Positions 43,979-61,384 of a stretch of DNA of 64,000 nucleotides are shown in pieces. This DNA is from a virus (taxonomy: Duplodnaviria > Caudoviricetes). The position numbers were made by a program, and so were the translations under genes. Location: IMG/VR virus record IMGVR_UViG_2615840722_000002, positions 3,936 through 67,935 of that record. One strand, 5' to 3'. How positions within the stretch are numbered: the stretch's first letter is position 1; each line of letters starts with the position of its first letter. The notes beneath the pieces were generated by a model that was given only the letters and a program-made list of their open reading frames with translations, made no database searches and had not been told where the DNA came from.

Positions 43979-44203
43979 TTAGGCCGTTATCGAGTTCCCG
44001 CTCATGACGGCTATTTTTGTATAGAATTCCTTGTCTTCCTCGTACATTGTTTTGCTCATTTCGTAACCTTTCATAGCAAGGTCATAGGCCCATTCATTGC
44101 CTTCTTTTTTATATTGTTCCGCTTGCTGCTTAAACGTTTCTATTTCTTTCTTTGCCTCTTCTAACGCTTCAAGAAATCTCTCAATTCGACTCATGCGCCC
44201 CAT
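43979..44203 (-). CDS. small hypothetical protein
   Basis: Coupled within the early operon. Confidence 0.55.
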   Translation of the reverse strand: MGRMSRIERFLEALEEAKKEIETFKQQAEQYKKEGNEWAYDLAMKGYEMSKTMYEEDKEFYTKIAVMSGNSITA

Positions 44204-44427
44204 CCTTTCTGGAATTTTGCCTTTTCTGCTTCAAGCGCTATCCTATTCATCACTAATCGTTCCAGGTATGCCTCATTTTGTTCCGCATCCATAAGGCTCA
44301 TATCATAAAGCATTGTTCTTTCTAACACTTCCTGTATGTTTAAATTTTGTTCCAATATAGTAAGCGGACTTTTCTGTTCACGCGACTTGAGCCTGCTCAC
44401 GTTCTTTCCTCCACCTTTCTTGCACAT
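44191..44427 (-). CDS. small hypothetical protein
   Basis: GGAGG internal RBS suggests a GTG start near 44400. Confidence 0.5.
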   Translation of the reverse strand: MCKKGGGKNVSRLKSREQKSPLTILEQNLNIQEVLERTMLYDMSLMDAEQNEAYLERLVMNRIALEAEKAKFQKGWGA

Positions 44428-44496
44428 TTTTCAAAGCTTGTAGCATGCCTATCTTCTGGTGCTTAGGAAGAGACAGCCATAACCCAACTTTTATTT

Positions 44497-44838
44497 TCAT
44501 GCGCTTCGTCTCCCTTCGTATTCGTATTTAGCCTCCTGGACTACCTCAGATACTAGGTAAGCGAAATGATGCACTGCTTCTTTTCGTACTGGTCGTAATC
44601 CATTTAAGAAGTTGATAAGAAGATTACCGGTATAAACCATGTCCGATAGAATTTCGCCTACAGATGGGACATATCGCTTAGTCTGATAATGCACATGTAT
44701 GTATTGCTTAATGTCAGCGACCATTTCAGTAAACAAGTCATCACCTAGGTTCTTTTTCTCTTGAAGCTTGTCCAATTTGTTCACCTCACTTACTTGATAT
44801 ATCCTTTCGCCTTGAACTTTTGATAAATCCGAATCCAA
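44497..44838 (-). CDS. hypothetical protein
   Basis: Real start probably near 44783. Confidence 0.5.
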   Translation of the reverse strand: MDSDLSKVQGERIYQVSEVNKLDKLQEKKNLGDDLFTEMVADIKQYIHVHYQTKRYVPSVGEILSDMVYTGNLLINFLNGLRPVRKEAVHHFAYLVSEVVQEAKYEYEGRRSA

Positions 44839-45302
44839 ACCCGTCGCCAGGACTTTTTATATTCCCTGCAAATAACAGCGATGTAGTGAAGCAAGGCCAC
44901 TACAGCCTCGGCAGCTTCGTCAAGAACTTCGTCCAGTTTTGCGTTATCATACTCCGACATGCTTTTTGGATGATTGGCAAGACATACACTCCGTATCGCT
45001 TCCATTACTTCTTCTAGCTCTTCTTCCGTTTTGTCTTTTACGCTAGAACGATGAAGGTCTACCGCAGGACCGTTCAAGACTGGAATCCAGCTATATCCGA
45101 TCACCTCTTGCGCGGCTGCTATAGCGTATAATCCATCGTCCATAACTTCTACGCTTTTCCCTATCACTTCTTTAGGCATTTTCCTTCTGTTTTGCTCTAC
45201 CATCGAAACCGCGGACCGGCTGACATTAATCTCATCTGCGAAATCGGTTTGTGTAAGTCCAGCGGCTTCTCTGGCTTCTTTTTGATGTGTGCCAAAAGCC
45301 AT
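44790..45302 (-). CDS. XRE HTH regulator (cII-like position)
   Basis: GLTQTDFADEINVSRSAVSMVEQNRR; VDLHRSSV. Confidence 0.85.
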   Translation of the reverse strand: MAFGTHQKEAREAAGLTQTDFADEINVSRSAVSMVEQNRRKMPKEVIGKSVEVMDDGLYAIAAAQEVIGYSWIPVLNGPAVDLHRSSVKDKTEEELEEVMEAIRSVCLANHPKSMSEYDNAKLDEVLDEAAEAVVALLHYIAVICREYKKSWRRVWIRIYQKFKAKGYIK

Positions 45303-45651
45303 TTATATCACCTCGTTTTGTGTCATTGGATCACTTTTTTGCCACGATTGCCTATGCTACAATTTGTTTAACAGTAGTTGAGGCGTTCTTTGTCGTAGTA
45401 AATAAGGCTATTTAGATACCAAAAACAAAGAATAAAAATCTGAATAGTCAGATATAAAGGTGCGGATAAGCAGGCTGCATGTTCTTTTTTGGCGAAAAAA
45501 ACTACGCAGTATTAATATACATCAGCACATATGTTCCTATTGTTTCTACCACACCATTTCCCGCCTTGCTTACTACGCTAGTTTTAAACGGTGGTTTTAC
45601 TCATTGGAAACATTTTCAGATTATATTTTGCGTCATTTTGGATATAATTTA

Positions 45652-45879
45652 TTATGCCGTTATTTTATTTTGTTGCTTTTTGACGCATTTTTCATTAAAA
45701 AAAAGAGTCCATTCTACCTTTAAAACCTTAGCAATTTTTTTCGCCAACGGAACACTTGGTGTTCGGGTTCCGCCTATAATATGGGCGATATGCCCCCTTG
45801 AAACTTTCACTTTTTTCGCTAATTCACTTGTAGATATTTCAAGCTTCTGAAGAGAATCAATCATCCATTGTCGTTTCAT
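45652..45879 (-). CDS. cro: Cro-like HTH repressor
   Basis: ELAKKVKVSRGHIAHIIGGTRTPSVPLAKKIA..EWTLFF; start MKRQW. Confidence 0.85.
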   Translation of the reverse strand: MKRQWMIDSLQKLEISTSELAKKVKVSRGHIAHIIGGTRTPSVPLAKKIAKVLKVEWTLFFNEKCVKKQQNKITA

Positions 45880-45892
45880 ATCATCACCCCTT

Positions 45893-46008
45893 TGCGTCTC
45901 TATGACTACATTATAATGTGTCACTATGACATAGTCAATACCCCTTGCGTCTAATTGACAACATTTTTTTATGTGTCTTTTTGACGCATTATAAGTATAA
46001 TAAATAAT
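45893..46008. promoter_or_regulatory. genetic switch: four operators and divergent promoters
   Basis: TGYGTC-N5-GAC at 45893, 45917, 45946 and 45972; cro promoter TTGACT-17-TATAAT (45938-45910, minus). Confidence 0.75.
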
Positions 46009-46028
46009 GAAAGGAGATCGATTTTGCA

Positions 46029-46454
46029 ATGAATGAATTTCCCATTCGTCTTAAATCTTTAAGAAAATCAAGAAAGAAAACACAACAAGATATGGCCGAT
46101 CTTCTTAGCATCGCCAGGGGATCTTATGCACAGTATGAAATCGGAAGAAGAAATCCTGATTATGATACAATTCAAAAACTAGCTGATTTCTTCAGTGTAT
46201 CTATCGACTACCTTCTTGGAAGAACAGATAATCCCGCCACAAACGTTATTAAAAACAATAGCGCTTCTGAATTGGCTATAAACGATAATAAAAATAGTGA
46301 TGAAGATAGACCATTAACAAAAGAGGCTGTTGAAGAGTTATTCGCGGATGATCCAGAAGGAAAAGAGCTAATGCTTTTAATGATGGAACTACCACCCGAG
46401 AAAAAGAAAATTGTAAAAGAATTACTAAAGCAATTTAGGGAGACTGAAAAATAA
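46029..46454 (+). CDS. cI: CI/Xre-type immunity repressor (no S24 peptidase domain)
   Basis: TQQDMADLL..YEIGRRNPDYDT..LADFFSVSIDYLLGRTD; divergent from cro. Confidence 0.88.
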   Translation: MNEFPIRLKSLRKSRKKTQQDMADLLSIARGSYAQYEIGRRNPDYDTIQKLADFFSVSIDYLLGRTDNPATNVIKNNSASELAINDNKNSDEDRPLTKEAVEELFADDPEGKELMLLMMELPPEKKKIVKELLKQFRETEK

Positions 46455-46455
46455 G

Positions 46456-46492
46456 TAAAACGACCGCACTTTATAGGAACGGTCGTTTTTTA
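46456..46492. terminator. bidirectional terminator
   Basis: AAAACGACCG...CGGTCGTTTTTT. Confidence 0.8.
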
Positions 46493-46509
46493 CTTTACAT
46501 ATTCTTAAC

Positions 46510-47997
46510 TCAGCGAGTGGCAGCTACTTCAAGTTGAGTTTGATCTATCATGACGCTTTGTCTGTATTCTTGCGCTTCAGCTAATTTGGTGAATTCGACG
46601 ACTTTATTATGATTCTTTTTTACGATATCCTCTATTTCTTTTAAAGTCACATAGAAAAACTCTTTTCGATGGTTAACCTTATTGACGCTTTTCCTGCGGA
46701 AAGATTTATGTAGTGCATTTTCTAAACTTGGTGCATCTTCGCTAAAAATCATTGCATGTATATCAAAACCGAAAGGGACAGAAGCTCCGCTTAACTCCCT
46801 TATTCGTTCCGTTGGTTCTAACCTTCTGGTCATTCCGATTTTGTAGACATTCTCTCCAAATGAACCGATATTTGAAATAATATAAACATAACCGGCTCGT
46901 GTGTTTTGTTCCCGATTATATACATCCTCTTTGTCTTTTTCGATAAGTACAAGTTTTTCTTCTAGCTCTCTTATTTTTGTTTCTATTAATTCTTTCATAC
47001 TGCCTGTTGCTGTCTCTAATTTTTTCTTTAGTTTATCTATCTCTTGTTTAAAGTGAGTTTCCTCTTTCTCTAATTTCTCTTTAATTTTATTAATCTCTTG
47101 AAGAACACGTTGTTCCTCACGCATCTGCTCTTTTATGCGTCGTTGTTCTTCTCGTTCCTCTTCTTTTTTCTTTTCATACTCATATGCTAAATATAGCTCT
47201 TCTTTTTTTAACTTAAAGTATTCCTGTTTAATTTCAATCTTATTATGCTTATTTACTTTATTTAATGCGTCAAAGGCTTTCTCGATACGCTTTTCAATAG
47301 ATTGGATATTATTGAACTTAACTTTACTAATCGCCGCATCACATTCGTTGTTAAAGGAGCGAATCGTCAATTTTATGTTATTATTATTCATGGCTTTTCC
47401 TTTTTGTTTATTGCCGTCGAGTCGCCAATCATCCGAATGAATAGTAGCCTTGCGATTTTTGACCATTTCCTTTTGTTTGTTCCTGACTGATTCAAGCCTT
47501 TGTTTATACGCTTCGGAATTTTCTAAGTTATATTTTGGTGTATAAAAACCAAATGATTGATAAAGAACTTCATCCTCTAGGACAACTATTTCATTATGTA
47601 ATTCCTTCTTCTTTTGCTCAGCATTATGTACTTCCTTCGTTAACTCACTTATCTCATTCTTTAAATCCACTACCTCTTTCTTTGCATTATCAACTATTCC
47701 CTGCGCCACTTTCCGCAAATCATCTCCCTCTGTTTTAGCGCTTTCAATTATGCCTTTTGCTTCTTTTTCCGCATTACCAATTAGTTCCTGTACCTCTTTT
47801 TGTATTTTGTCTCTCCTTTCTTGTATTCTAACTAAATCACCAAAGCCGCTATCTTCCCACTCTTTTCTTACTATTTGATTTTCTTTATTTTGCCGAATCA
47901 AAAGGATAATACCGATAACTAGTGGAACAACTAAAAACCAAAACATAAACATCAATGCAATAAACCAGCTTGATAAATACCATTTTTGCTCTCTCAT
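46510..47997 (-). CDS. membrane-anchored DUF4041 + T5orf172 (GIY-YIG-like) protein
   Basis: N-terminal TM; RSFNNECD; RAGYVYIISNIGSFGENVYKIGMTRRLEP..RELSGASVPF. Confidence 0.9.
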   Translation of the reverse strand: MREQKWYLSSWFIALMFMFWFLVVPLVIGIILLIRQNKENQIVRKEWEDSGFGDLVRIQERRDKIQKEVQELIGNAEKEAKGIIESAKTEGDDLRKVAQGIVDNAKKEVVDLKNEISELTKEVHNAEQKKKELHNEIVVLEDEVLYQSFGFYTPKYNLENSEAYKQRLESVRNKQKEMVKNRKATIHSDDWRLDGNKQKGKAMNNNNIKLTIRSFNNECDAAISKVKFNNIQSIEKRIEKAFDALNKVNKHNKIEIKQEYFKLKKEELYLAYEYEKKKEEEREEQRRIKEQMREEQRVLQEINKIKEKLEKEETHFKQEIDKLKKKLETATGSMKELIETKIRELEEKLVLIEKDKEDVYNREQNTRAGYVYIISNIGSFGENVYKIGMTRRLEPTERIRELSGASVPFGFDIHAMIFSEDAPSLENALHKSFRRKSVNKVNHRKEFFYVTLKEIEDIVKKNHNKVVEFTKLAEAQEYRQSVMIDQTQLEVAATR

Positions 47998-48269
47998 TAT
48001 TCTCTCCCTTATCTTTTAATCTAATGCTAGTATACGATTATCTAATAAATTCTGGAAATAAAAAACCGAAAATAGCAATATGCCATCATTCGGTTTTTCG
48101 TAGTCGTATTCTGTTTTATTTCATAAGTACAATTTCTTGCAACTTTTTATAAACCTCTTTTGCATTTGGATTATTTTTAAGGCACTCTTTCTTTAGTTCC
48201 AACAAAGCATTACCATCCATGTATGTTAATTCTGTTTCTGTTTTATTCATTGAATGCCCCCTCCCTTTT

Positions 48270-48800
48270 CTATATACTCTCAGCCCCATCTTCAATCAAG
48301 CCTAATACCCCTATTACTTTCCCTATCACGTCGGCTTCACTGGTAACTATCGTTTCCTTTTCATCAGCTTCCAGCATTCTTTGTCTGCCATCGCTATATA
48401 ATCGCCGAATCATCTTACGGCCACCTAAATTAACTAAAGCTATATTCCCATCCTCTACGTTCCTCGTAGGGCGCACAATCACGGTATCTCCTTTCTTGAT
48501 TTTAGACTTTAACATTTCATCGTCCTCTACCAAAAAGTATAAAACCGGATCATGTTTTTTCGCAAAAAATGCACCACTGTTTTTTTCATCTTCAATAATT
48601 TCAATTGCGCGTGGGCTTTTTATATCGCCACGTTTAATATATCCGCGTCGTTCTAAGCGCTCCAAATGGCCATGAACAGTCGAACTGGAGGCTAACCCTA
48701 CTCCCTTTGCGATCTCTCTTGTCGACGGTGAATACCCCTTGTCCGCTTGATAGCACTTGATAAATTTAATAATCTCTTTTTGTCTAGATGAAATTTTCAT
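48270..48800 (-). CDS. LexA-like repressor with degenerate (non-autocleaving) C-terminal domain
   Basis: GYSPSTREIAKGVGLASSSTVHGHLERLE; DDEM in place of GDSM; MIRR in place of TVKR; no Ala-Gly loop. Confidence 0.85.
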   Translation of the reverse strand: MKISSRQKEIIKFIKCYQADKGYSPSTREIAKGVGLASSSTVHGHLERLERRGYIKRGDIKSPRAIEIIEDEKNSGAFFAKKHDPVLYFLVEDDEMLKSKIKKGDTVIVRPTRNVEDGNIALVNLGGRKMIRRLYSDGRQRMLEADEKETIVTSEADVIGKVIGVLGLIEDGAESI

Positions 48801-48852
48801 TTCTACTCCCCTATTTATATTCTTCTCTAAATTTTTTTAACCTCAAAACACA

Positions 48853-48864
48853 GAACACCTGTTC
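48853..48864. promoter_or_regulatory. SOS (Cheo) box
   Basis: GAACacctGTTC 52 bp upstream of the lexA-like gene. Confidence 0.7.
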
Positions 48865-49024
48865 CTAATTCATTTTAATTTTACTGGCGTACATGCAGGA
48901 AAGCAATACCAACTCGCAGTTTGTCACTACTTTCAAGGTACTCAGTCTAATGAAAATACCTAAAATTTATGGTGTTTTTTAAGCTATAATTAACAACGTT
49001 ACATCTTCATAGAGGAGGTTCCCC

Positions 49025-49282
49025 ATGCCTGTCCTCATACAGAGGAGTCGGCTCAAATCTCTTCTGCGCCAGATGGGGAAAACACAACGATGGCTAGCTA
49101 AAAAAATTCATTTTCCCTATCAACGCATTAACGATTATGCGAACGATCGCAGGACGATGCCTATCGAAATCGCGATCAACTGTGCGCGTGCGCTCGAATG
49201 TAGCGTTGAAGAACTTTTTGATTTAGAAGAGGTTTCCCCAGCTGAATGGCGAAGCTGGGTAGCGAGCCGACGTAAAGAGTAG
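49025..49282 (+). CDS. XRE HTH protein
   Basis: TQRWLAKK..RINDYANDRRTM..ARALECSVEELF; GAGGAGG RBS. Confidence 0.8.
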   Translation: MPVLIQRSRLKSLLRQMGKTQRWLAKKIHFPYQRINDYANDRRTMPIEIAINCARALECSVEELFDLEEVSPAEWRSWVASRRKE

Positions 49283-49591
49283 TAGTTGAGAAAACATCTC
49301 TCTCTACTCTCAGGTAGAAAATAGCCGTTATCGGCTACTCCTTATTTTGCCCCTTACTCAAAGGGTTCCTCCCCTTATCCCTTTCCTCTTACACTTTCTC
49401 TCACTCCTATATTCTTCTTTTTCCAATCAGCTTTCTTTTCCGGAAAATTTTTTAAGTGATAGGAATATTTTCTCTATATATACATCATACATGGGTGTGC
49501 AAGCCAAAACCGGAACATGATTGTTTAGTCTTAACTTCTTTTTGTTCCGCTTTTTCCACTTAATTGAAAAATTCTACATCATTCGACAAAA

Positions 49592-50107
49592 TTAGAACTG
49601 ATTTGTCGAACGATTTTCAGGCAATTCCCCAGTTATAACCGCTTTAATTATGAATAACCAGTCTTTTTCTTTAAGACTATCTGCCTGTTCAACGATATAT
49701 TTAATCATCCTATTGTTCACTTTGGTGGAGAGGAAGTCATACTTGAGGATTAGACAGATTCCTGTTAACTGGTAATTGTTGCTCATCTTTTTTTGACGAA
49801 TAACAGCGAAATAACAAGACATCACTTTTTTTGCATTTTGCTGATCACCAGCTTGAAAGTACATATCAGCAATTCGGAAGAGTCTAGATTCGCTTTTTAG
49901 TGATTGAATATATAACTGGCGCATTTCCTTAGGCTTGATGCGTAACACCTTGCATATAGCGTACAAAGTGGCAATTCCAGGGGAGTGCTCATTCTTTTCA
50001 ATTTTTCTATACCATCTTATAGAGATGTTGCATTTTTTGGCGACGTCCTCTTGTGTCATTTTTAACCATACTCTTCGCTTTCGAAAATGAGTTCCTAGCT
50101 CTCTCAA
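49592..50107 (-). CDS. XRE HTH regulator with helical C-terminus
   Basis: MTQEDVAKKCNISIRWYRKIEKNEHSPG. Confidence 0.75.
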   Translation of the reverse strand: MRELGTHFRKRRVWLKMTQEDVAKKCNISIRWYRKIEKNEHSPGIATLYAICKVLRIKPKEMRQLYIQSLKSESRLFRIADMYFQAGDQQNAKKVMSCYFAVIRQKKMSNNYQLTGICLILKYDFLSTKVNNRMIKYIVEQADSLKEKDWLFIIKAVITGELPENRSTNQF

Positions 50108-50251
50108 AACGGCACATCCCTTTTACAGAAAATTTGTCCATCTGTAGAATAGAGGGTTAAATATGTAAGATTCAATAGAAAAACTTTACATTTAGAACGG
50201 TTTGATTTTCTTTTCTTGGTATAAGCATCATTTTTGTTATAGGAGGAAGAC

Positions 50252-51298
50252 ATGAGTAAAGAAAAAAACATCGGGGTTCCAAAATGGGTGAAGGATTCTC
50301 TATCCAACTCATTTCAGCAAGACGGAAAAGAACTAGTGTACATTGTTCCGGTCAAGAAAACGGCTCTCGGTCGTTTTTTTGGCACTGTAAATCAGGATGG
50401 AATAGAAATTTTTGAAGCGACTAATAAGAAAGAATTGAATAAAGTGGACGAGTTGTTTTTTCGGGATTGGGAGTCCGCTTCTGCAGAACACTTCTTCATT
50501 AAGGCACAGTTTATATTTCAAAAGGATTTATTTTCTAAAGAACTGATTGTAGAGGACAAAGCAAAAGAAATCGAAGCAATTATTAGACAGCACGTACCCG
50601 TTCAAGTTACGCAACGTCCTTGGTGGAGGAAGGTAGTAGGGTTTCGTTCAAAAACTAAATGGAAAATGGTTGTGGCCAGTATTGCTTATCTCTATATTTT
50701 CGCGTTAGCTGCTGAATTTTTTAGTGAAAATAAAAAAGACAACGTCCAGACGGCAGCTTCTTCAGTACAACAAGAAGAAAATGCTCAGAATACGCGGGCT
50801 ATGGCGCAAGAAAAGAATGAAGAAACGCCTACTCCTCCCCCACCAGCACAAGAAAAGCAGGAAGAAGTCAAAGCACCGGCCTTGCTTACCCGCTCTGGGG
50901 GATTAGGCGATACATATCAAGCATTTGAAAAACAATATGGGGAGAATGCCGGTACTAAGGATATGGCCAGATTTTCAGGAGATTATATACTCCCTATGTT
51001 TGTTAACGATCGTGCCTGGAATGTACTTGTACAATTTGAAGCAACGGATAAGCCAAGAAGAACATTAGAAGATGCGAATAGCTATGTCCAAAATGTCATT
51101 CCTCTCGATTCTAAGAAAATTAAAAAGTGGAAGTTGGATGGGAACCGGGACGTTGTTATGTACCACAGCCCTTCTCTAGCAAATCTATTTGATCAACAGT
51201 GGTTTGGAGAAGAAAAGCCAGGGACCTTTATTGTTATTTTAAAGCATGATGAGAATGGAATATTCTCTTTCACTGTAGCAACTGGCAATAATCCATAA
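50252..51298 (+). CDS. membrane-anchored hypothetical protein (moron)
   Basis: AGGAGG RBS; GFRSKTKWKMVVAS + TM; Pro/Glu linker; extracellular C-terminal domain. Confidence 0.75.
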   Translation: MSKEKNIGVPKWVKDSLSNSFQQDGKELVYIVPVKKTALGRFFGTVNQDGIEIFEATNKKELNKVDELFFRDWESASAEHFFIKAQFIFQKDLFSKELIVEDKAKEIEAIIRQHVPVQVTQRPWWRKVVGFRSKTKWKMVVASIAYLYIFALAAEFFSENKKDNVQTAASSVQQEENAQNTRAMAQEKNEETPTPPPPAQEKQEEVKAPALLTRSGGLGDTYQAFEKQYGENAGTKDMARFSGDYILPMFVNDRAWNVLVQFEATDKPRRTLEDANSYVQNVIPLDSKKIKKWKLDGNRDVVMYHSPSLANLFDQQWFGEEKPGTFIVILKHDENGIFSFTVATGNNP

Positions 51299-51353
51299 AT
51301 TCAGTTGTTCAAGAAAGTTTATATAACCTAACAAATCTATCAAGGAGGACATT

Positions 51354-52031
51354 ATGAAAAAGATACTTGCACTCATGATCATGCTAGGACTGGTAGCAGC
51401 TCCGCTGTCCGCTTCTGCTCATCCCGGCCGCACCGACGCAAATGGAGGACACACATGCCGGACAAACTGTGCTAAATGGGGATTAAAAGACGGGGAATAT
51501 CACTACCATAACGGAGGCAGCACAAAAACAACGTCTGCCCCTACTACAAAAGCAACGCAACCAGCTCCCGCAAAGGCGACTACAACTAAACCAGCTCAAA
51601 ACAAGCTTCCTGGTACCTTGAAAGTAACAGTTACGAAGGTCGTTGACGGGGATACATTCAAAGCGAAGGTCAATGGCAAGGAAGAAAGCCTTCGTTTGAT
51701 TGGTGTTGATACGCCAGAAACGGTCCATCCAAACAAACCTGTACAACCATACGGCCCAGAAGCTTCCGCTTACACCAAGAAGCGCCTCAATGGACAAACA
51801 GTAACTTTAGAGTTTGACGTTCAACAGAGGGACAAATACGGGCGTCTATTGGCGTATGTATGGTTAGGCAACGCTAAGAATCCGAAAGCTGAAATGTTGA
51901 ATCAGACACTTGTCAAAGAAGGCTATGCCCAGGTTGCAACGTTCCCGCCGAACGTTAAATATACAGATAGCTTTGTAAAACTGCAGAAGCAGGCTCGGGA
52001 TGCTAAGAAAGGTCTATGGGCTGAAAAATAA
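51354..52031 (+). CDS. secreted YHYH-domain thermonuclease (SNase)
   Basis: Signal peptide; HPGRTDANGGH..EYHYH; VVDGDT, RLIGVDTPE, DKYGRLLAY. Confidence 0.92.
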   Translation: MKKILALMIMLGLVAAPLSASAHPGRTDANGGHTCRTNCAKWGLKDGEYHYHNGGSTKTTSAPTTKATQPAPAKATTTKPAQNKLPGTLKVTVTKVVDGDTFKAKVNGKEESLRLIGVDTPETVHPNKPVQPYGPEASAYTKKRLNGQTVTLEFDVQQRDKYGRLLAYVWLGNAKNPKAEMLNQTLVKEGYAQVATFPPNVKYTDSFVKLQKQARDAKKGLWAEK

Positions 52032-52140
52032 AGCAAACTAATAAAACTCCCTGGTATATATACTAGGGAGTTAATTATATACTATTGGCAAATATAAAAA
52101 ATTTGATACTATCCTCTTTAAAAGATACACCGCTCTTTTT

Positions 52141-52674
52141 TTATTTTGGCCACTTATCGTCAACTATCTCGATGCCAGCCCTTTGTATATAGTTGTCATA
52201 GTCATATGTGGAGCCTGACCCATTAATTAATTTAAAGAGTTCATATTTCTTTTTTGGTATTGAATATCTTGTAACCTCATATGTCTTATCATCAATCTCC
52301 CTATCTGGTAAAGGAATAGAGACTCGTCCGCCATCTACCGTCACATAAATATCCCTGTATACTAATGTCCCATTATAAAAGAAATCTATAAAACTACTTG
52401 TCGCCTTTGGATCAGGGAATTTATTTGCCCATTCCTCCATAAAATTATCTCTATGTTCCATTCCCCATGCTAGACTGATTGATAAATCTGTTTTTAATGA
52501 TGCTACTGTACTATGAGAATCGATGTCTAGGCTATGAAATTCATCATCCCCTGTTTTCCAGACCGTAATATTGTTGTAATATGACGGACCACTTCCTCCT
52601 CCCCAACAAACGTTAATTGTCCAATCTTCCTTTTGAGCAGTTAACACTTTGTCCATAAATTCAGTTAAATTCAT
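52141..52674 (-). CDS. hypothetical protein
   Basis: GAGGGG RBS; standalone and AT-rich. Confidence 0.7.
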   Translation of the reverse strand: MNLTEFMDKVLTAQKEDWTINVCWGGGSGPSYYNNITVWKTGDDEFHSLDIDSHSTVASLKTDLSISLAWGMEHRDNFMEEWANKFPDPKATSSFIDFFYNGTLVYRDIYVTVDGGRVSIPLPDREIDDKTYEVTRYSIPKKKYELFKLINGSGSTYDYDNYIQRAGIEIVDDKWPK

Positions 52675-52813
52675 AATTAAACCCCTCTCTAACTTAATTC
52701 AAGAACAAAACTACAAAATAATTCCATTCTCCTTCTAAGCAATTATAAAATGAATGGATAAAATTTACGACGACATTTTCTTGACGTTGTTTTAAATGTT
52801 TTACGATCTTTTG

Positions 52814-53108
52814 TTTTATATGTTTTATATGTTTTATATGTTTTCGGAAGCTTGAACCCCTTGATATTACTAGGTTTATAGAGTCTAACTATCACATAAA
52901 CAGGGTCAACTATCACAAATTCAGGGCGAACTATCACATAAACAGGGTCAACTATCACAAATTCAGGGTCTTAATTATCACAAATTCAGGGCGAACTATC
53001 ACATAAACAGGGTCAACTATCACAAATTCAGGGTGAATTATCACATAAACAGGGCGAACTATCGCAAAAACAGGGTCAACTATCACAAGTTTAAAATTTG
53101 TGATAGTT
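52814..53108. repeat. plasmid origin: AT-rich 9-mers plus 21-bp iterons
   Basis: TTTTATATG x3; AACTATCACA(T/A)A(AA/TT)CAGGG(TC/CG) x9 at 52887-53077; half-iteron with inverted copy at 53078-53108. Confidence 0.93.
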
Positions 53109-53162
53109 CGTCGATAATATATAGTATAATAGAGCAAAAAGATGGCGAAGATGAGGTGTGGC

Positions 53163-54272
53163 ATGAACGCTTTGGAGAAAATAGATGAGAAATTGATCGT
53201 CACCAAATCAAACGATCTGATTGAAGCATCATACCGATTAACCCTTCACGAACAACGCATCATCTGTATACTGGCTGCCAAAATACAGCCAGAAGATACT
53301 GTGTTCCGGACATGCAGAATTGAGGTAGGCGAATTTATCGACCTACTTGGTCTTAAAGGCAAAAGCATACATAACGATATTAAAAAAATCATAAAGGATT
53401 TCGTCTACAAGGGATTCGAGATTAAAAGCGAAGGCGTATATACGGTGAGTTCCTGGTTTGAGTGGGCCAAATATAAAGAGAAGGAAGGGTTCATGGAATT
53501 TAAGTTTTCGGAAGAGCTTATCCCCTTCTTACTGCAGCTCAAGGAACGTTTCACCAGCTACCGGCTAAACAACGTTATACCGCTACGCAGTAGCTACTCT
53601 ATTCGTATCTATGAACTGCTAAAACAATATGCGAATATCGGAGAACGCACCTTTGACTTGGAACATTTGAAGTCTATTCTCGGTATTGAACCAGATGAGT
53701 ACAAGCTATACGGGCATTTCAAGAGCCGAGTTCTTACTTCCGCTCAGAAGGAACTTGATGAAAAGACAGACTTATCTTTTGAGTTTGAAGAATTGAAAGC
53801 CTCTAGAAAAGTTGTTGGGGTCCGCTTTATCATTACCCGAGGAAGGTCAACAAAAGAGATTAACCACATAGAGCCTAAAATCGTTGAGGAAATAGCCATT
53901 GCTTCTCGTTTAAAAGCGTTCGGATTGACTCAAGCACAAATCGAGTACATCCTGAAGACTTATGATGAATCATACATACTGGAAAACCTACATATTGTCG
54001 AGAAAGACTATTTAGCCGGAAGAGTAAAGAATATAACTGGTTATGCTTATAAAGCTTTAGAGCAAGACTACCGGAAGAATAAACCGGAGATAGAAAAGCA
54101 ATTGGAAGGTCAGAAAAGCAATCCTGCTTATGAAGGGATTCCTGAACATATTTTAAGGCAAATGGAGAGACAGAAAGCATTAGAAGCTCAGAGTGGTTCA
54201 GGAAAAGAACCGTCTCGCGAAGAACAGCGTAAACGTGTAAAACAAATGCTCCTTGCGTTCGGAGAAAAGTAG
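53163..54272 (+). CDS. repB: plasmid replication initiator, Rep_3/RepB family
   Basis: KSNDLIEASYRLT..EQRI, FLLQLKERFT.Y, SSYSIRIYELLKQ, FKSRVL..A..EL; adjacent iterons. Confidence 0.93.
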   Translation: MNALEKIDEKLIVTKSNDLIEASYRLTLHEQRIICILAAKIQPEDTVFRTCRIEVGEFIDLLGLKGKSIHNDIKKIIKDFVYKGFEIKSEGVYTVSSWFEWAKYKEKEGFMEFKFSEELIPFLLQLKERFTSYRLNNVIPLRSSYSIRIYELLKQYANIGERTFDLEHLKSILGIEPDEYKLYGHFKSRVLTSAQKELDEKTDLSFEFEELKASRKVVGVRFIITRGRSTKEINHIEPKIVEEIAIASRLKAFGLTQAQIEYILKTYDESYILENLHIVEKDYLAGRVKNITGYAYKALEQDYRKNKPEIEKQLEGQKSNPAYEGIPEHILRQMERQKALEAQSGSGKEPSREEQRKRVKQMLLAFGEK

Positions 54273-54279
54273 GCATAAT

Positions 54280-54310
54280 AATAGCCGCCCTATCCTGGGC
54301 GGCTATTTTG
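54280..54310. terminator. bidirectional terminator
   Basis: AATAGCCGCCC...GGGCGGCTATT. Confidence 0.8.
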
Positions 54311-54332
54311 TTAAGTATTATAAGTTGTATTT

Positions 54333-54740
54333 TTATATAGGTGTTCCTGAAATAAATCCAATAGCCCGAGCTATAGCAATCCCAGCGGCCGAATCACGAA
54401 GCGTATTTGAAAAAAGTGTATACAATGTTTTTGCTCGATCAAGGTTTCCGTTTTTTACAGCTTCTTGAAGTTTTTGAGCGTCTCCTAATGCCTCGTTTCG
54501 TTCAGCTTCATTTGGCAATTTATGTATCTCTTGAATGAAATCCGCAAAAATATCGGGTGATATTCCGGTCTGATTTTTTTCAATTTTTACTTGTGTATTT
54601 TCATTCCCTTGAAAGTTAGTATTATCACCAAGCTGCGCATTTTTAAAAGCGTTACCTGCAAAGATTTGTTTGCCGTCCATTATTGTCATCTCCCCGTTTA
54701 CAACGTAGTAGAGTTTATCAATATTCACTCCAGATTTCAT
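54333..54740 (-). CDS. hypothetical protein: N/G/Q-rich N-terminus, helical C-terminus (cassette gene 3)
   Basis: Best RBS (GGGGAG) precedes MDGKQ at 54680; also in the -1 frame of gene 2. Confidence 0.7.
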   Translation of the reverse strand: MKSGVNIDKLYYVVNGEMTIMDGKQIFAGNAFKNAQLGDNTNFQGNENTQVKIEKNQTGISPDIFADFIQEIHKLPNEAERNEALGDAQKLQEAVKNGNLDRAKTLYTLFSNTLRDSAAGIAIARAIGFISGTPI

Positions 54741-54781
54741 TATATCGAGTACAGATGTTGGTTTTGCATTAACTGTATTAC

Positions 54782-55147
54782 TTACATTATTAGTTGGACT
54801 GATTTCTTTTTTTTTACATGTTTTAAATACCCCGGAAGAAAATTAAATACAATCCAAACTTTATCTAGGCTAGGAATGTATTTGATATCGCATATACTAC
54901 ATGTTCTTATTTCCTCTGTGATTTCTGATAAAGAGTCAACATCATAATCACTATCTCCGTTAGGGCATTCTACTTCGTAATATACTGTTAATTTCTTGCC
55001 TACTAAGTCCAACATATACTCGGTTACAGATTTCAAATCAGTAACACCAAGCCTAGCGCATACATAGTGAGGCGCAAAGTGGGAACGACCTTCAACAGCC
55101 ATTTGTTCCAATATATCTTCTATAAGGAAATATAGATCCTCATCCAC
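54782..55147 (-). CDS. wHTH/Zn-ribbon-like protein (cassette gene 2)
   Basis: YEVECPNG...CSIC; GAGGGGAGG RBS; ends at the A9G run. Confidence 0.75.
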   Translation of the reverse strand: MDEDLYFLIEDILEQMAVEGRSHFAPHYVCARLGVTDLKSVTEYMLDLVGKKLTVYYEVECPNGDSDYDVDSLSEITEEIRTCSICDIKYIPSLDKVWIVFNFLPGYLKHVKKKKSVQLIM

Positions 55148-55181
55148 CTTGAAGCCCTCCCCTCATACATAGAATCTTGGC

Positions 55182-56189
55182 CTACTCTAGAGAAACCTGT
55201 TCAGTAATTTCCTCTTGTTCTAATTCTATAGCGAGTTGTTGTTCTCCTGTTTCCTCTTCATCCAATATTTCTTCAGACTCATTATTTTGATTATATTTTA
55301 TATCAAGTATGTGATTCAAAACATACATAATTACTTCCTCACCAACATTTGAGCGAAACCAAAGTCCCTCGTCCGTTATTACATAGGATATTTCATCTTT
55401 AAATCCAAAAGAATATTCATAAGGAAAAATTAGTGTTTTCTTCTTCATGGGTTGATCGCCGAATTCCTTTTTGTATTCTTCGGTCGATTCAAGGTCTTCG
55501 ACTCTTGTATGTGCTGTAACTTCTTTTGTAGCATAAACACCCTCTGTCATTTTATGCTTCGCAGCCCTTAAACGAGCTTTCAATCTACGAGCTAGTTCAT
55601 TGGCTTGTTGATCTGTCAGTTTGGTAACTTTATCCCAAACAACCTCTTCTTTTATATCCATAATTTTTAGTACAGATTGTTTGAAACTTTCGTTTTGTGT
55701 TTGACTTGCTCTGATTTCTACCGAAAAAGGTGAAAAGTGTACCACTACATATTCAAGTAATTGTGGAGAACGAACTACTATTTGGTAGTCGTCTAAATAT
55801 CTTTTGGGGGTACCTAAATAAGAAAAAGCTAAAATGATTTTTCCGTTTAATTGACGAGCCTTAATTAGTTTCGGTTCATTTGTTAACTTTGGACGAATGC
55901 CTTTCCCAAACAATGAACCTGTATACTTTTGAATTAGATAATCTTTAAAGTATTCAATATCATGCCATTCGGGAGGGATACCGCTCATCATAACATGTAT
56001 ATTAACCGCGGTCGCTCCAGCGAATTGGAATTGGTCAGCTAATTCCCAACCAATGGTAGGGCTAGCAGAGGAAACGGCATCGGCCATATCTTCTGTGGAA
56101 TTCAGCTTAGCATCAAAACCTTCCCTTTTTATTATCTCTTTTAAAGCTCCGGTAGGCACTTGCATTATTAGTATATCCTTTAGACTCAT
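55182..56189 (-). CDS. uncharacterised 335-aa protein (cassette gene 1)
   Basis: Long ORF, AAAGGGG RBS, acidic tail; no family recognised. Confidence 0.8.
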   Translation of the reverse strand: MSLKDILIMQVPTGALKEIIKREGFDAKLNSTEDMADAVSSASPTIGWELADQFQFAGATAVNIHVMMSGIPPEWHDIEYFKDYLIQKYTGSLFGKGIRPKLTNEPKLIKARQLNGKIILAFSYLGTPKRYLDDYQIVVRSPQLLEYVVVHFSPFSVEIRASQTQNESFKQSVLKIMDIKEEVVWDKVTKLTDQQANELARRLKARLRAAKHKMTEGVYATKEVTAHTRVEDLESTEEYKKEFGDQPMKKKTLIFPYEYSFGFKDEISYVITDEGLWFRSNVGEEVIMYVLNHILDIKYNQNNESEEILDEEETGEQQLAIELEQEEITEQVSLE

Positions 56190-56321: not shown

Positions 56322-57671
56322 TTATTTAAAAGGATTGAATTTCTTTTCTAGCTTCTTCTCAGTCGTCTCCTTTTTTAAGGCTGTAAACGGATTCGCTGGT
56401 GCAGCGGCTTTCCCTGCTCTTGTCCGTGTACTGGTACGCCCTTGACGGCTGCTTAACTCTCCACCAATGTCAAAACCAGACTGCCGCTCTTCTCTCTCTC
56501 TTTGCTTTGCTAGCAGCTCCTCGGACTCTTGTTTCAAATTTCTGGCCCGTTCTGGTAATCCCCGCAAGCTACAAATTGTATATACCAGTGCATGTTTGCT
56601 ATCCCATGTGGAACGGCCATAATAAATCGGCACTCCTTCCAACTCTCCTTGCAGCTGGCGATTAATTTTTTCTAATGTGTCCCTGTTCAATAGCTTTTCT
56701 GTGTTTTTCGGCATCACGATATTAATGCCGAATGCAATCGCATCATTTTTATAGTCAAATCCATTAGCCAGGACATTTCTTTCCCGGTATGTAGCCACAA
56801 TTTCATTAATCAGGTCGTTTTCGCTTTTCAGATCCCCGCTCTGTAAATTGATTTTCTTCTTCGCAAATGTGAGCACACCGCCCGTAAACAGCAGTTTGTT
56901 CTTAAAGTCTTCCGCATCTAAGGTTTTGTCACTCTCTAATGTAGTAACGACGTTCCATTCATGTAGTATAGAAGCTACCTTATAGTTTGAGTAACGGTCC
57001 CAAGATAAATTTGTAACTTCCGCGCTCCCCTGCTCCACAGCCTCTATATGCTCTTCAATAATTTTTTTGTTGTCTAGGATTACGATGTTCTCTAGAACGC
57101 GATACGAGCCGCCCTGTTCGTCCTCCTGGTACTCTTCTAATTTGGGTACCAACTCTTTCAACGCTTCGTATGCATTCACGTTTTCATCAACATGAGGGTT
57201 CGGGAGACTTACGATAGCCATAACTGGCTTTCCTAAGTAATCCGCACATACGTCAATGACCATGTTAATGGAGCCGGTTCCAGTACCTCCGCCCAGCGAC
57301 GCCACAACAACAATGGCTTCAGTATCGTGCATTACACGGTTGAGAGTTTCGAATACAATCTCCCCATTCGCCGCCATAGCTTGCTTACCCTTTTCAGGGT
57401 CCATACCAGCCCCTTTTTCAAACTCTGCACCTTTTAACTGGAGACGGTTAGCTCTATCGACGTTTTGAAGGTTTTGGATATCCCCCATATTTGTATTGAT
57501 GCATAGCACTGGATATTGGGCGTTCCCGTTCGCGTTCCGGATGCCAGCGAATGCATCAACGATTTTTCCTCCCCCCTGTCCCAACCCAACAAATCCAAGC
57601 TTTGTACCAACAGTCGCTCCTTTTTGCTTCACGAAACTTTCTAATTGCCATACATTGTCGATAGTTAACAT
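56322..57671 (-). CDS. tubZ: tubulin/FtsZ-family GTPase, TubZ-like partition motor
   Basis: GLGQGGGKI, INTN..D, GAG.DP..G, SLGGGTGTG, LDN, LDAEDF; basic C-terminal tail. Confidence 0.85.
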   Translation of the reverse strand: MLTIDNVWQLESFVKQKGATVGTKLGFVGLGQGGGKIVDAFAGIRNANGNAQYPVLCINTNMGDIQNLQNVDRANRLQLKGAEFEKGAGMDPEKGKQAMAANGEIVFETLNRVMHDTEAIVVVASLGGGTGTGSINMVIDVCADYLGKPVMAIVSLPNPHVDENVNAYEALKELVPKLEEYQEDEQGGSYRVLENIVILDNKKIIEEHIEAVEQGSAEVTNLSWDRYSNYKVASILHEWNVVTTLESDKTLDAEDFKNKLLFTGGVLTFAKKKINLQSGDLKSENDLINEIVATYRERNVLANGFDYKNDAIAFGINIVMPKNTEKLLNRDTLEKINRQLQGELEGVPIYYGRSTWDSKHALVYTICSLRGLPERARNLKQESEELLAKQREREERQSGFDIGGELSSRQGRTSTRTRAGKAAAPANPFTALKKETTEKKLEKKFNPFK

Positions 57672-57672
57672 T

Positions 57673-58056
57673 TTATACGTTCTCCCCTTTCGGCATGATT
57701 TTGCAGGCTTTTAGTAGCTCTGGATTCCGTTCTAAGAAATCACCCATATATTCTGTTGCCTTCTTGCCATTTTCAGTAAGAAAATACATGTCTGCCGGTT
57801 TTTTACGATAAGAACTAATGAATGTAGTACCTATCATTGTGGCGATCGCTTCATCAATCGCAAAACGAAATTTTTGTGTACCAGGATCAACATTACAAGC
57901 CGCTTGATACTCTCTCAAAATATCAATTTTAGATATACCCTCATCTGAACGTGTTATAAGGTACAAAACATCCAGCAATATTGATTCTTTAATTACTTTT
58001 TCGCAGATAAAAGCTACAGTTCTGTCATCAAATGCGACTACTTTTTCTTCTTGCAA
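57673..58056 (-). CDS. tubR: wHTH protein, putative TubR adaptor
   Basis: Directly upstream of tubZ; YFLTENG wing motif. Confidence 0.6.
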   Translation of the reverse strand: MQEEKVVAFDDRTVAFICEKVIKESILLDVLYLITRSDEGISKIDILREYQAACNVDPGTQKFRFAIDEAIATMIGTTFISSYRKKPADMYFLTENGKKATEYMGDFLERNPELLKACKIMPKGENV

Positions 58057-59075: not shown

Positions 59076-59498
59076 TTATAAGCTTTTTCCGACTTGTTCA
59101 AGTACTCTTATAAACAGTGGAGAAAGCTGGATTAAGATATAGCCCAATCCTGCGTGTTGTATCGTATTCCAAGCCTTTTCAGAGTTACCAAACATGAAAA
59201 AGAAACAGCCTCCAATCATAACAACTGAAGCGACAGGCAGACTGATTGCAACAAGTATTTGAACAATTGGATCAAGAGCATGAGCAAGGATAGATAGCGA
59301 AGTAGAAGCAACAGCCTTGGTTGCCGCTTCGCCAGCTCCTTCAGCAAAGACCGCCGTCGGAGATAGGGCAAGGGGAACCATACAACCGGCCTTAATAAGT
59401 GTGCTCGTAAGCTTCTTTAGGTCTTTGTTGCTTATTTTTGGCGTCTTCCATGAGCCATCCATAAACTCAGTAAATCCGATCGTTTGAACCTTTGCCAT
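59076..59498 (-). CDS. pilin/VirB2-like membrane protein
   Basis: AVFA processing-like site followed by two TM helices. Confidence 0.55.
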   Translation of the reverse strand: MAKVQTIGFTEFMDGSWKTPKISNKDLKKLTSTLIKAGCMVPLALSPTAVFAEGAGEAATKAVASTSLSILAHALDPIVQILVAISLPVASVVMIGGCFFFMFGNSEKAWNTIQHAGLGYILIQLSPLFIRVLEQVGKSL

Positions 59499-59511
59499 TC
59501 TAAACACTCCC

Positions 59512-60123
59512 TTATTTAATCTCGTCAATCAAATACACCTGAAAGGGTAGGCCGTCGCATATCTCCCTAAAGCGTTTCATTCTGCTTTTGTTGACTGTTA
59601 CGATATGTAAAGTAGGAAAATAGCCGAAATTTTTATCATTTTGAAAGACACCTGACTCAAACATCTTTCTGTACTTGTGTACTTTTGCTTTGTTTTCAGC
59701 CATTGTTTGCCGATTATCCACTTCTAAAAAGTTGTACTGTTTATCCTTGAAGAAGAGGGCATCAGGGATAACACAAACCTTTCCTCCGATTTCTACCTTT
59801 CGTTCGTTAAACCAATGAGGAGGGCAGCCCATATGAAAGAAGAAGTCAACACGCATTAAGTTATGAGTAGTTTGCAGCGTCCGTTTTACTTGCTTTTTAG
59901 CCCCAATCATCTCCCGGCCTGACTTGTTTAGATAATATACCGTGTCATAGCCCTCTCGGAAGCTGTGTAGGTACGCTTCCATCTGCCGCAATACCTTTTG
60001 TGCGTTCCTGTCGCCTCCAAGCCTGTGAAGACGCTGTATGTGGCTCCTAGTCAAGAAATTGAATCTTTCCAGACTGAGCAATATCTGTTCTTGTCTCTCC
60101 ATCCGGCTTATTTTTGACCTCAT
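59512..60123 (-). CDS. replication-relaxation (Replic_Relax) family protein
   Basis: FLTRSHIQRLH, YYLNKSG, HNLMR, IPDALF, FLEVDN. Confidence 0.85.
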   Translation of the reverse strand: MRSKISRMERQEQILLSLERFNFLTRSHIQRLHRLGGDRNAQKVLRQMEAYLHSFREGYDTVYYLNKSGREMIGAKKQVKRTLQTTHNLMRVDFFFHMGCPPHWFNERKVEIGGKVCVIPDALFFKDKQYNFLEVDNRQTMAENKAKVHKYRKMFESGVFQNDKNFGYFPTLHIVTVNKSRMKRFREICDGLPFQVYLIDEIK

Positions 60124-61384
60124 TGACGGGCTCCTTTCTCGCTTTAATAACGATATGAGGCATAATGGCCTGATGAATGATCTTTGTTTCGATCATAGGT
60201 GTTTGCAGGATTCGTCTCCGGTCCGCCGTTTGATAAATTGCACGGCCTTTTACCTCTGGTAGTTCTTCAGCTCCCGTTTCATCAAGTACAACACGGCTGG
60301 CCGTTCCATTCTGAACCCTGAAGCAAAGCTTTGCATCTGAATTTTGTTTACACTGACGGGGAATCACGTCGCCCGTAGGGTACTGTGTGGCAAGAATCTG
60401 CCGATACCCAAGGCCGGCACCTAGCCGGGCAATTTGGCTCATGTATGTTTGGCAGCTCTCCTTCAATGCCCGTTCCTCTTTAGTAATGGCTTCAGACGGA
60501 TTTAGTTCTCCGACTTCATCAATGATGATGAAATGACGAGTAGGGTCCTTTGCCTCCTGTACATTCTTTACCGAGCGATGCTTAAATTGCTGTTGTTTCT
60601 CACGCATTTCTTTTACGACGGATCTGAGGGCTTTCTCGGCCTCTTCTGGCTCTTCGGCGTAGTTTACGACCTGTTCTATATCCTGGTAGTCTGAAAACTC
60701 TACACCGCCTTTTAAATCAATAAGGGTGAATTGAACGTTATCCGGCTGCAGGAGTAGGAGAGTGGTAATGAGCATATTGAGGAAATTTGATTTCCCATAC
60801 CGTGTGGCGCCGCCAATGACCATGTGAGGGATTTTTTCAAAGTCATGTAGAATGAGTTGGTTTCCTTCTCGAATTTGTCCTACGGTCACTTTCCAGCCGT
60901 CTCCGACTAGGCTTATGTCTGTGTAGTGGAGTAGGGTAGGTAGTGGCTCGTTATAGACCTTTATCTTGAGTAGGCCATCGTAAGACAGCTCTATCTCCTT
61001 TCTGGTGGCTTTTTTCTTCTTCAACAACTCTTTTATCTGGTGAATGAGGTTTTGCTTCAAATTAAGGCTTTTTAGGTCTGTTAGAGTGAAGTGGAGTAGG
61101 GTCTTCCTGTTATTAAGTCCATCCTGGATGTGATTGAATTTTGCTTTATAATCTTCAAAGCTTCTTCCCAATGGAATCCTATATCGGTACTCAACGCCCC
61201 AGGGATATATCTTTCTTTTGACAAGCTGCGTAGTGAATGTTCTTTTCCCGTCTCGAATGTTCAGACCTGAATTAGTAAAAATTTGATTCAATTTATCGCT
61301 GTCATTTGTTGCGCCCGTTTTTTTGAATTGGGCATAAAGGGCGATCGAACCCATCACAACTGAAGAGATAATCTCAAGCATCAA
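60047..61384 (-). CDS. FtsK/SpoIIIE-domain ATPase
   Basis: PHMVIGGATRYGKS, LIDLKGG, IIIDE, ATQYP, GAEELP..GRAIY. Confidence 0.92.
   Translation of the reverse strand: MMLEIISSVVMGSIALYAQFKKTGATNDSDKLNQIFTNSGLNIRDGKRTFTTQLVKRKIYPWGVEYRYRIPLGRSFEDYKAKFNHIQDGLNNRKTLLHFTLTDLKSLNLKQNLIHQIKELLKKKKATRKEIELSYDGLLKIKVYNEPLPTLLHYTDISLVGDGWKVTVGQIREGNQLILHDFEKIPHMVIGGATRYGKSNFLNMLITTLLLLQPDNVQFTLIDLKGGVEFSDYQDIEQVVNYAEEPEEAEKALRSVVKEMREKQQQFKHRSVKNVQEAKDPTRHFIIIDEVGELNPSEAITKEERALKESCQTYMSQIARLGAGLGYRQILATQYPTGDVIPRQCKQNSDAKLCFRVQNGTASRVVLDETGAEELPEVKGRAIYQTADRRRILQTPMIETKIIHQAIMPHIVIKARKEPVNEVKNKPDGETRTDIAQSGKIQFLD

Follow-up and report, generated by a model that had tools for sequence, protein, structure and literature searches.

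The LexA-like gene and the element that carries it

The DNA analysed here (the window) is a stretch of 64,000 nucleotides (nt) from a tailed virus (Duplodnaviria; Caudoviricetes), corresponding to positions 3,936 to 67,935 of the IMG/VR record IMGVR_UViG_2615840722_000002. On its reverse strand it carries a gene for a LexA-like protein, preceded by a putative promoter with a predicted LexA-type operator (Table 1), and this gene is the subject of the present analysis. The window makes up nearly all of a separate contig of 64,472 base pairs (bp), C1, which continues for another 490 bp past the first base of the window and has a G+C content of 40.9%, against 42.9-45.2% in the other contigs larger than 30 kb. 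The genes of a myovirus-type phage are present, namely those for the tape measure, tail sheath, portal, large terminase, head protease and baseplate, together with a gene for a RecT-type annealing protein and with plasmid-type genes for a Rep3 initiator, TubZ and an FtsK/SpoIIIE protein with Replic_Relax. Since structural and packaging genes stand on one contig with genes of plasmid replication and partition, the element is classified as a phage-plasmid of the myovirus type of roughly 64 kb, an assignment made from the genes of a contig whose ends do not overlap. An earlier interpretation, made by inspection of the nucleotide letters (here called the sequence-only reading), had spoken of a phage LexA; the element is a phage-plasmid and not an integrated prophage.

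The start codon of the LexA-like gene has a ribosome-binding site, AGGGGAG, 5 nt upstream, as read from the sequence. In the protein, Pfam recognises the domain LexA_DNA_bind (PF01726; E-value 1.4e-19) at residues 2-62, and Peptidase_S24 (E-value 2.5e-13) in a match that covers only positions 18-116 of the 116 in the profile. The score against the NCBIfam LexA equivalog TIGR00498 is 102.7 bits, below the cut-off of 110.95, with two separate stretches matched, and the top sequence matches in PDB are LexA chains (3K2Z, E-value 2.5e-12). The protein is laid out as a winged helix (about residues 1-68), a short disordered linker (about 69-86), a core of S24 fold (about 87-166) and an acidic tail (167-176).

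An AlphaFold2 model, for which the input was a 52-sequence alignment of LexA-type proteins, has a mean predicted local distance difference test score (pLDDT) of 81.4 and a predicted template modelling score (pTM) of 0.48, with low confidence only at residues 71-81, in the linker, and 170-176. When the model was compared with PDB by Foldseek, full-length LexA ranked first (3K2Z, E-value 8.6e-13), and the E. coli LexA structures 1JHF, 1JHH and 1JHE are among the PDB sequence and Foldseek matches. The C-terminal domain (C-domain) of the model superposes on LexA C-domains and UmuD' cores with a root-mean-square deviation of 1.4-2.2 Å over 86-90 columns, and this identifies it as an S24 core from which the mobile cleavage region is missing. 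The C-terminal strand VIGKVIGV is retained and aligns with that of the host LexA, in agreement with the earlier claim that the dimerisation strand GKVIGV is kept; the S24-fold domain may dimerise.

Lost cleavage parts and conserved DNA-reading residues

The LexA-like protein and its relatives were aligned with the host's own LexA, taken from the same genome, and with four other LexAs from Bacillales. About 30 alignment columns, which comprise the inter-domain linker and the KVTAG/KVTAGMP cleavage strand of the host LexA, are gapped in all 12 members of the family, so the VxAG cleavage loop is deleted as the sequence-only reading had stated. The two catalytic replacements that it had named were also found. 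The host GESM lies opposite DDEM, which puts Glu in the place of the catalytic Ser, and the host VKR lies opposite IRR, which puts Arg in the place of the catalytic Lys. Arg at this position is invariant across the family, in which R132-R133 do not vary. At the Ser position the family has E, A or G and once S, the Glu being peculiar to the window copy and the relatives having A, G or S, a variation to be expected of a site that has lost its importance. The Ser/Lys dyad of active S24 peptidases is absent from the protein. Because the cleavage loop is missing and both residues of the dyad are replaced, the alignment supports the conclusion that the LexA-like protein cannot cleave itself by the LexA mechanism, and it predicts that neither RecA-stimulated nor alkaline self-cleavage would take place.

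The DNA-binding domain had been described as near-identical to that of Bacillus LexA. This is correct for the recognition block GLASSSTVHGHL, which is identical in the LexA-like protein and the host LexA, but not for the domain as a whole, as residues 2-73 are only 59% identical to the host protein. Identity over the C-domain is about 30-35%, judged by eye from the alignment. The residues S38, S40, H43, H45, L46, R57 and R64, in the recognition helix and the wing, are invariant in all of the 52 aligned LexA-type sequences.

Promoter and LexA-type box

The window has a single exact GAAC-N4-GTTC box, GAACACCTGTTC, and it is separated from the start codon of the LexA-like gene by 52 nt, in agreement with the sequence-only reading. 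By chance a mean of 0.92 such sites would be expected, and 58 of 100 shuffled sequences have at least one, so that the presence of the box alone is within chance; its weight comes from its position in the promoter and from its conservation at three loci, not from its count in 64 kb. On the gene strand, TTGCTT is followed after 17 nt by TAAAAT and then, about 10-16 nt further on, by GGAACAGGTGTTCT; a second TAAAAT is found at 48877-48872. The same arrangement occurs upstream of the homologs in pAT1, a circular 69-kb plasmid of Aneurinibacillus thermoaerophilus, and in the viral contig L085, both of which have TTGCTT-17-TACAAT followed by AGAACATTTGTTCT (pAT1) or GGAACGTTTGTTCT (L085). When the three upstream regions are aligned, conservation is confined to three blocks, namely -35, -10 and box, the proteins being 56-62% identical. 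The TTGCTT promoter was missed by a promoter consensus scan, its -35 matching at 3 of 6 positions, and conservation was relied on instead.

The promoter region of the host lexA contains AGAACGTTCGTTCT and AGAACAAACGTTCC, and the host uvrB has CGAACCTACGTTCG. As these genes carry the same type of motif, the box in the window is of the host SOS type, and its location just downstream of the -10 corresponds to a repressing position. Allowing one mismatch gave 22 further sites in the window, none at a convincing regulatory place, with the possible exception of GCACATATGTTC at 45525, in a gap between early genes. Across the host genome GAAC-N4-GTTC is not enriched, with 58 sites compared with 106 for the reversed control, and motif counts alone are for this reason uninformative.

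Family, distribution and selection

A search of 5.8 billion proteins returned 2,268 matches at E <= 0.001 among 2,415 candidates. Among the best 120 that were listed, the first 11 have 174-178 amino acids and 56-90% identity to the window protein, and two of these 11 bear a source name, LexA family protein of Aneurinibacillus aneurinilyticus. The matches among the 120 that come after these, beginning with the 12th, are 199-242 amino acids long with at most 39% identity, and those with a name at source are called LexA. The family thus delimited consists of 12 intact open reading frames (ORFs), including that of the window, of 174-178 amino acids, with 53 invariant positions, many of them in the C-domain. 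A full-length homolog is present in 2 of the 11 species genomes of the host's family (G000 included).

Independent coding DNA was available from three loci, the window, pAT1 (L204) and L085; the coding sequence of G001/L105 is identical to that of L085. By the Nei-Gojobori method, the proportion of nonsynonymous differences (pN) between these loci is 0.22-0.30 and that of synonymous differences (pS) 0.61-0.88, while for the C-domain alone the ratio of nonsynonymous to synonymous rates (dN/dS) is 0.13-0.27, dS being saturated in these comparisons. The comparison among homologs, which had been proposed along with the sequence-only reading, supports purifying selection on the gene and gave no pseudogene-like decay.

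Among contigs from four runs, the metagenome contig X7 spans positions 48100-49300 with about 94% identity, and its two deletions within the gene sum to 3 nt; the uncovered parts in X6 and X9 carry no information. L085 was the single true relative found in a scan of viral contigs. The 80 loci listed in each of the scans of genomes and metagenomes were all canonical LexA genes, with 29-44% identity, and a Tumebacillus locus (L069) turned out to be an ordinary LexA. Comparison of positions 44000-56000 with plasmids by megablast gave one match of 415 nt only. A profile search of 1.84 billion representatives gave 24 proteins at E <= 1e-30. Twelve proteins chosen from the best 150 profile matches were aligned with the window protein and the host LexA, and at least seven of the 12 lack the AG segment (P0010, P0123, P0151, P0186, P0192, P0199 and P0239), which indicates that loop-less relatives of LexA exist in several lineages; some of these AG-less proteins retain Ser and Lys. 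Regarding sequencing runs, 15 of the 17 listed contain the stretch or part of it, all as contigs; the sole RNA run, a metatranscriptome, contains 0.05 of the sampled words, which speaks neither for nor against transcription.

Because the protein lacks the cleavage parts and has invariant DNA-reading residues, and the gene is under purifying selection with a conserved box in its promoter, its predicted control by the host LexA, by the LexA-like protein itself or by both is well founded.

Gene neighbourhood

The features of the region are collected in Table 1. Downstream of the LexA-like gene, the window, pAT1 and L085 share one gene order: a small ORF comes first, then a CI-like Xre gene in convergent orientation, and then the Cro-like gene with which the early genes begin. 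The pAT1 copy is the closest named relative (56% identity), and the genes of this plasmid include those for terminase, portal, baseplate, holin and ParM. As a separate observation, pAT1 has an additional, canonical lexA (L206 33575-34198), with VTAG, GESM and VKR present and the box AGAACGAATGTTTG upstream, and thus holds both a cleavable and an uncleavable LexA.

Table 1. Features of the LexA-like locus and its neighbourhood (positions in the window).
Feature	Position	Strand	Basis or remarks
LexA-like gene, 176 amino acids	48270..48800	-	ORF call, Pfam, alignment with host LexA, AlphaFold2, Foldseek
LexA-type (Cheo-type) operator, predicted	48853..48864	.	GAACACCTGTTC; gene strand GGAACAGGTGTTCT; sole exact match in window
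Putative promoter of LexA-like gene	48872..48906	-	-35 TTGCTT 48906-48901, 17-nt spacer, -10 TAAAAT 48883-48878
Small ORF directly downstream	48116..48250	-	44 amino acids from ATG 48250; 59 amino acids from TTG 48295
Xre-type helix-turn-helix (HTH) gene, 85 amino acids, divergent	49025..49282	+	Pfam HTH_3, HTH_26; 35% identity to divergent 97-amino-acid HTH protein of L085
HTH + helical-domain protein, 171 amino acids	49592..50107	-	Pfam HTH_3; upstream of LexA-like gene, same direction
CI-like Xre repressor gene, lysis-lysogeny switch	46029..46454	+	Pfam HTH_3, phrog_8/3/4; 48% identity to L085 counterpart
Cro-like HTH gene heading early (-) genes	45652..46029	-	Pfam HTH_3 at residues 61-108; real start probably internal
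DUF4041 + T5orf172/MUG113 gene, 495 amino acids, coiled-coil region	46510..47997	-	Pfam; phrog_1847, E-value 2.7e-165

The small ORF of the window has a strong ribosome-binding site, GGGAGGGGG, and no match in Pfam or PHROG. At the same place there is an ORF of 54 amino acids in pAT1 and an acidic one of 29 amino acids in L085, and no sequence similarity among the three is evident by eye. The HTH protein of 171 amino acids has 39% identity over 168 residues to the protein encoded immediately before the homolog in pAT1 (L204 8227-8751), and these proteins of window and pAT1 have 171-174 amino acids, an N-terminal HTH and a helical C-domain. According to Pfam the CI-like repressor is an HTH protein only, with no peptidase domain. 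The divergent promoters TTGACG-16-AATAAT and TTGACT-17-TATAAT lie between the CI-like and Cro-like genes, and a promoter match at 11 of 12 positions was found for the Cro-like gene at 45938-45910. The DUF4041/T5orf172 gene, situated between the operon of the LexA-like gene and the CI-like gene, is absent from that place in pAT1 and L085 and is likely an inserted accessory or defence-type gene.

Proposed role and alternative explanations

We favour, with slightly more than even confidence, the reading that the LexA-like protein is an SOS-gated, self-limiting and uncleavable repressor of the LexA type. It would amount to a naturally occurring LexA that is non-inducible: a winged-helix dimer would repress at GAAC-N4-GTTC boxes of the host type and be insensitive to RecA-stimulated self-cleavage. 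In an undamaged lysogen the host LexA would hold the LexA-like gene at a low level, with the LexA-like protein contributing. Upon DNA damage the host LexA would be cleaved and the promoter of the LexA-like gene would fire, and the uncleavable copy would build up until its own box is occupied again, providing a self-limiting and damage-insensitive replacement repressor. Because the 64-kb element has no second exact box, the other targets would be host SOS boxes, with a shortened or damped SOS response as the outcome. It is plausible that the protein would shut off the host SOS response or rival prophages, as the sequence-only reading proposed, and it may equally serve to time an operon for SOS-driven induction. 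Of that interpretation, the uncleavability judged from sequence, the conserved recognition residues, the selection and the box-bearing promoter stood up, and the step to host SOS and rival prophages would be an extrapolation with a precedent in gp7 of the phage GIL01, described below.

Should binding to SOS boxes occur, the protein would represent a naturally evolved dominant SOS-off allele on a mobile element, switched on by the very signal that it cancels, and a simple, testable circuit for limiting host SOS functions such as mutagenesis and division arrest. The same circuit would bear on the induction of rival prophages and on the timing of the element's own induction, and it would give a meaning to a wider set of LexA-derived proteins that includes the domain-only copies of Bacillus prophages, RegB and the loop-less short LexA-like proteins. 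We regard as possible, if doubtful, that it acts as an SOS off-timer in phage-plasmids of Aneurinibacillus-type hosts, where the uncleavable copy would take over all GAAC-N4-GTTC operators, end the host SOS response early and lock down the SOS-controlled genes of competing elements. The host chromosome has several such putative targets, including a serine recombinase gene preceded by a box and LexA-domain paralogs. Such an off-timer, if true, would be a new takeover of a global stress regulon by a mobile element, one that mimics the regulator rather than binding it. At present the case is a well-supported annotation with a putative mechanism and not a demonstrated system.

Several observations weigh against an SOS-gated LexA-type repressor. 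The deletion of linker and loop shortens the tether between the domains, which could alter operator geometry or affinity. The spacer of the box, AGGT, is more G+C-rich than the TTTG at the other two loci and also than the spacers of most candidate host boxes, and the affinity for it may differ from that for the other boxes. The family is narrow. Only DNA contigs matched. The conserved neighbourhood, with its CI/Cro-like switch, small ORF and upstream HTH genes, suggests a local phage role equally well. Finally, a LexA homologue of another phage, GIL01 gp6, activates a late promoter at GaCACAnnTGTGaC (PMC6182141).

A local role could be that of a timer. The SOS-box promoter would drive an operon of the LexA-like gene and the small ORF, which might encode an antirepressor acting on the CI-like repressor, and the LexA copy would close the operon again, giving a pulse or making sustained damage necessary. 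Host SOS genes would then not be the selected target, a view that can stand beside the favoured reading. The LexA-like gene adjoins the CI/Cro-like switch and is directly followed by a small ORF at all three loci, this promoter has the one exact LexA box found in the element, and, the CI-like protein being HTH-only, some link to SOS besides self-cleavage would be needed. LexA-controlled antirepressor operons are also known from other phages, such as 186 (Tum), N15 (AntC) and the Gifsy phages. However, the three small ORFs have neither evident similarity nor a family match, in the window an accessory gene of 1.5 kb separates the operon from the switch, and the SOS-inducibility of the element is an assumption. 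The timer is the main alternative, and we consider it rather unlikely.

The retained C-domain fold and terminal GKVIGV strand would also be compatible with interference through protein contacts, in which the dead S24 core enters mixed dimers with the host LexA, or sits on activated RecA filaments, and alters the cleavage of the host LexA. However, RecA contacts LexA through the loop that is deleted here, identity to the C-domain of the host reaches only about 30-35% (by eye), and the full conservation of the DNA-recognition residues and the operator at the gene's own promoter would be left unexplained. This explanation is improbable in our view, even with GIL01 gp7 as an example of a phage protein acting on LexA itself (PMC9700832). 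A change of specificity or sign as in GIL01 gp6 would make the protein act on plasmid or phage genes at non-SOS sites, the upstream box serving the host LexA only. Besides gp6, the regB product of C. perfringens plasmids, LexA-like, without AG loop and Ser and encoded in the plasmid control region (PMC3506638), points in this direction. In both of these the recognition helix is altered (K38 in gp6, SPSTVYGYL in RegB), whereas that of the window family is of the host type, and the box downstream of the -10 is at a repressing position; a changed specificity is accordingly quite improbable. As for a functionless, decaying remnant of a captured lexA, the loss of the catalytic parts and the drift of the Ser position among relatives would fit, but the 12 intact ORFs of 174-178 amino acids, their 53 invariant positions, including many in the C-domain, and the conservation of promoter, box and synteny make it very unlikely. 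A pseudogene was rejected on the intact ORFs of the family and on pN far below pS. Protein contacts, a gp6-like change and decay are thus the less likely explanations in view of the conserved helix and of where the box lies.

Comparison with known systems

LexA alleles that are unable to cleave are dominant and SOS-non-inducible. The laboratory E. coli LexA(Ind-) alleles (G85D, S119A and K156A) cannot cleave themselves, as is predicted for the window protein, the cleavage site or the Ser/Lys dyad being altered. The window gene differs from them in being natural, conserved and mobile, with the whole loop deleted and both residues of the dyad replaced, and, unlike them, it would be made only when the host LexA falls, as it is placed under a LexA box. 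A LexA-related regulator without cleavage determinants is reportedly encoded by the chromosome of Synechocystis. In contrast to the window protein, that regulator is said to be chromosomal, global and detached from DNA damage, and it does not accompany a cleavable LexA of the host as a second copy.

The phage GIL01 offers two comparisons. Its gp6 is likewise LexA-derived and belongs to an SOS-wired circuit, in a temperate phage that is extrachromosomal in its Bacillales host; gp6 consists of the DNA-binding domain only, with a changed helix (K38), recognises a different palindrome and is an activator of the late promoter (PMC6182141). The window protein, in contrast, keeps a C-domain of 90 residues and a recognition helix of the host type, and the box upstream of its gene is placed for repression. 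The other protein, gp7, acts jointly with the host LexA after damage, repressing host genes as well as the induction of a co-resident prophage (PMC9700832). It resembles the proposed role of the window protein as a phage factor that keeps LexA-type repression during DNA damage, and is the functional precedent for an effect on rival prophages. However, gp7 is small and unrelated and works via the host LexA, whereas the phage of the window would supply its own uncleavable LexA.

LexA paralogs that consist of the DNA-binding domain only, without the S24-fold core, are found in the Bacillus phages Wrath, 11143, BMBtp15 and PVJ1, with 46-53% identity over the N-domain. On the host chromosome, a domain-only gene for 76 amino acids (C27:1806949-1807240; L002 1501-1934) has AGAACTAATGTTCT exactly 53 nt upstream, a spacing as in the window, and is followed by an ORF of 68 amino acids, with an integrase-like gene nearby. 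At C27:2104044 the same box precedes an ORF that resembles a disrupted version of this pair of 76 and 68 amino acids. These domain-only copies are similar to the window gene in being LexA-derived, uncleavable and located on mobile elements, the host copy also in being preceded by GAAC-N4-GTTC, and they differ in lacking a dimerisation core.

RegB of the pCW3-like plasmids of C. perfringens is annotated as LexA and lies in the plasmid control region beside replication and partition genes (PMC3506638); in the accessible portion of that article no tested function of RegB was found. The copy of pJIR4150 (L205 540-1070) has 176 amino acids, with a LexA winged helix and an S24-like core without AG loop and catalytic Ser. 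Altogether 93 Clostridium plasmid records match the LexA-like query. RegB differs from the window protein in its recognition helix, has about 30-35% identity to it, and no GAAC-N4-GTTC was seen by eye in the 166 nt upstream of the pJIR4150 copy. In open-access papers and preprints, supplements excluded, no two-domain, loop-less LexA with a recognition helix of the host type under a LexA box was found on a phage or phage-plasmid.

Other genes of the element

The Rep3-type initiator gene is located at 53142-54272 (+) and the TubZ GTPase gene within 56322-58056 (-). A gene for 127 amino acids just upstream of TubZ is a possible TubR, and together with Rep3 these make up the module by which a tailed phage would be maintained as a plasmid. 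At 59076-61384 (-) the FtsK/SpoIIIE ATPase and Replic_Relax are adjoined by a weak match to a pilin of the type IV secretion system, forming a conjugation-like trio. An Abi_2 (abortive-infection-like) protein is encoded at 62094-62966 (-), and in pAT1 an Abi family protein is also near the plasmid module. The region of the tail genes includes, at 10058-11140 (-), a ParB-like partition nuclease (phrog_12047, E-value 7.2e-91). The last 18 bases of the window (63983-64000) are outside C1 and match another contig, C24, the end of the window being a join of two contigs.

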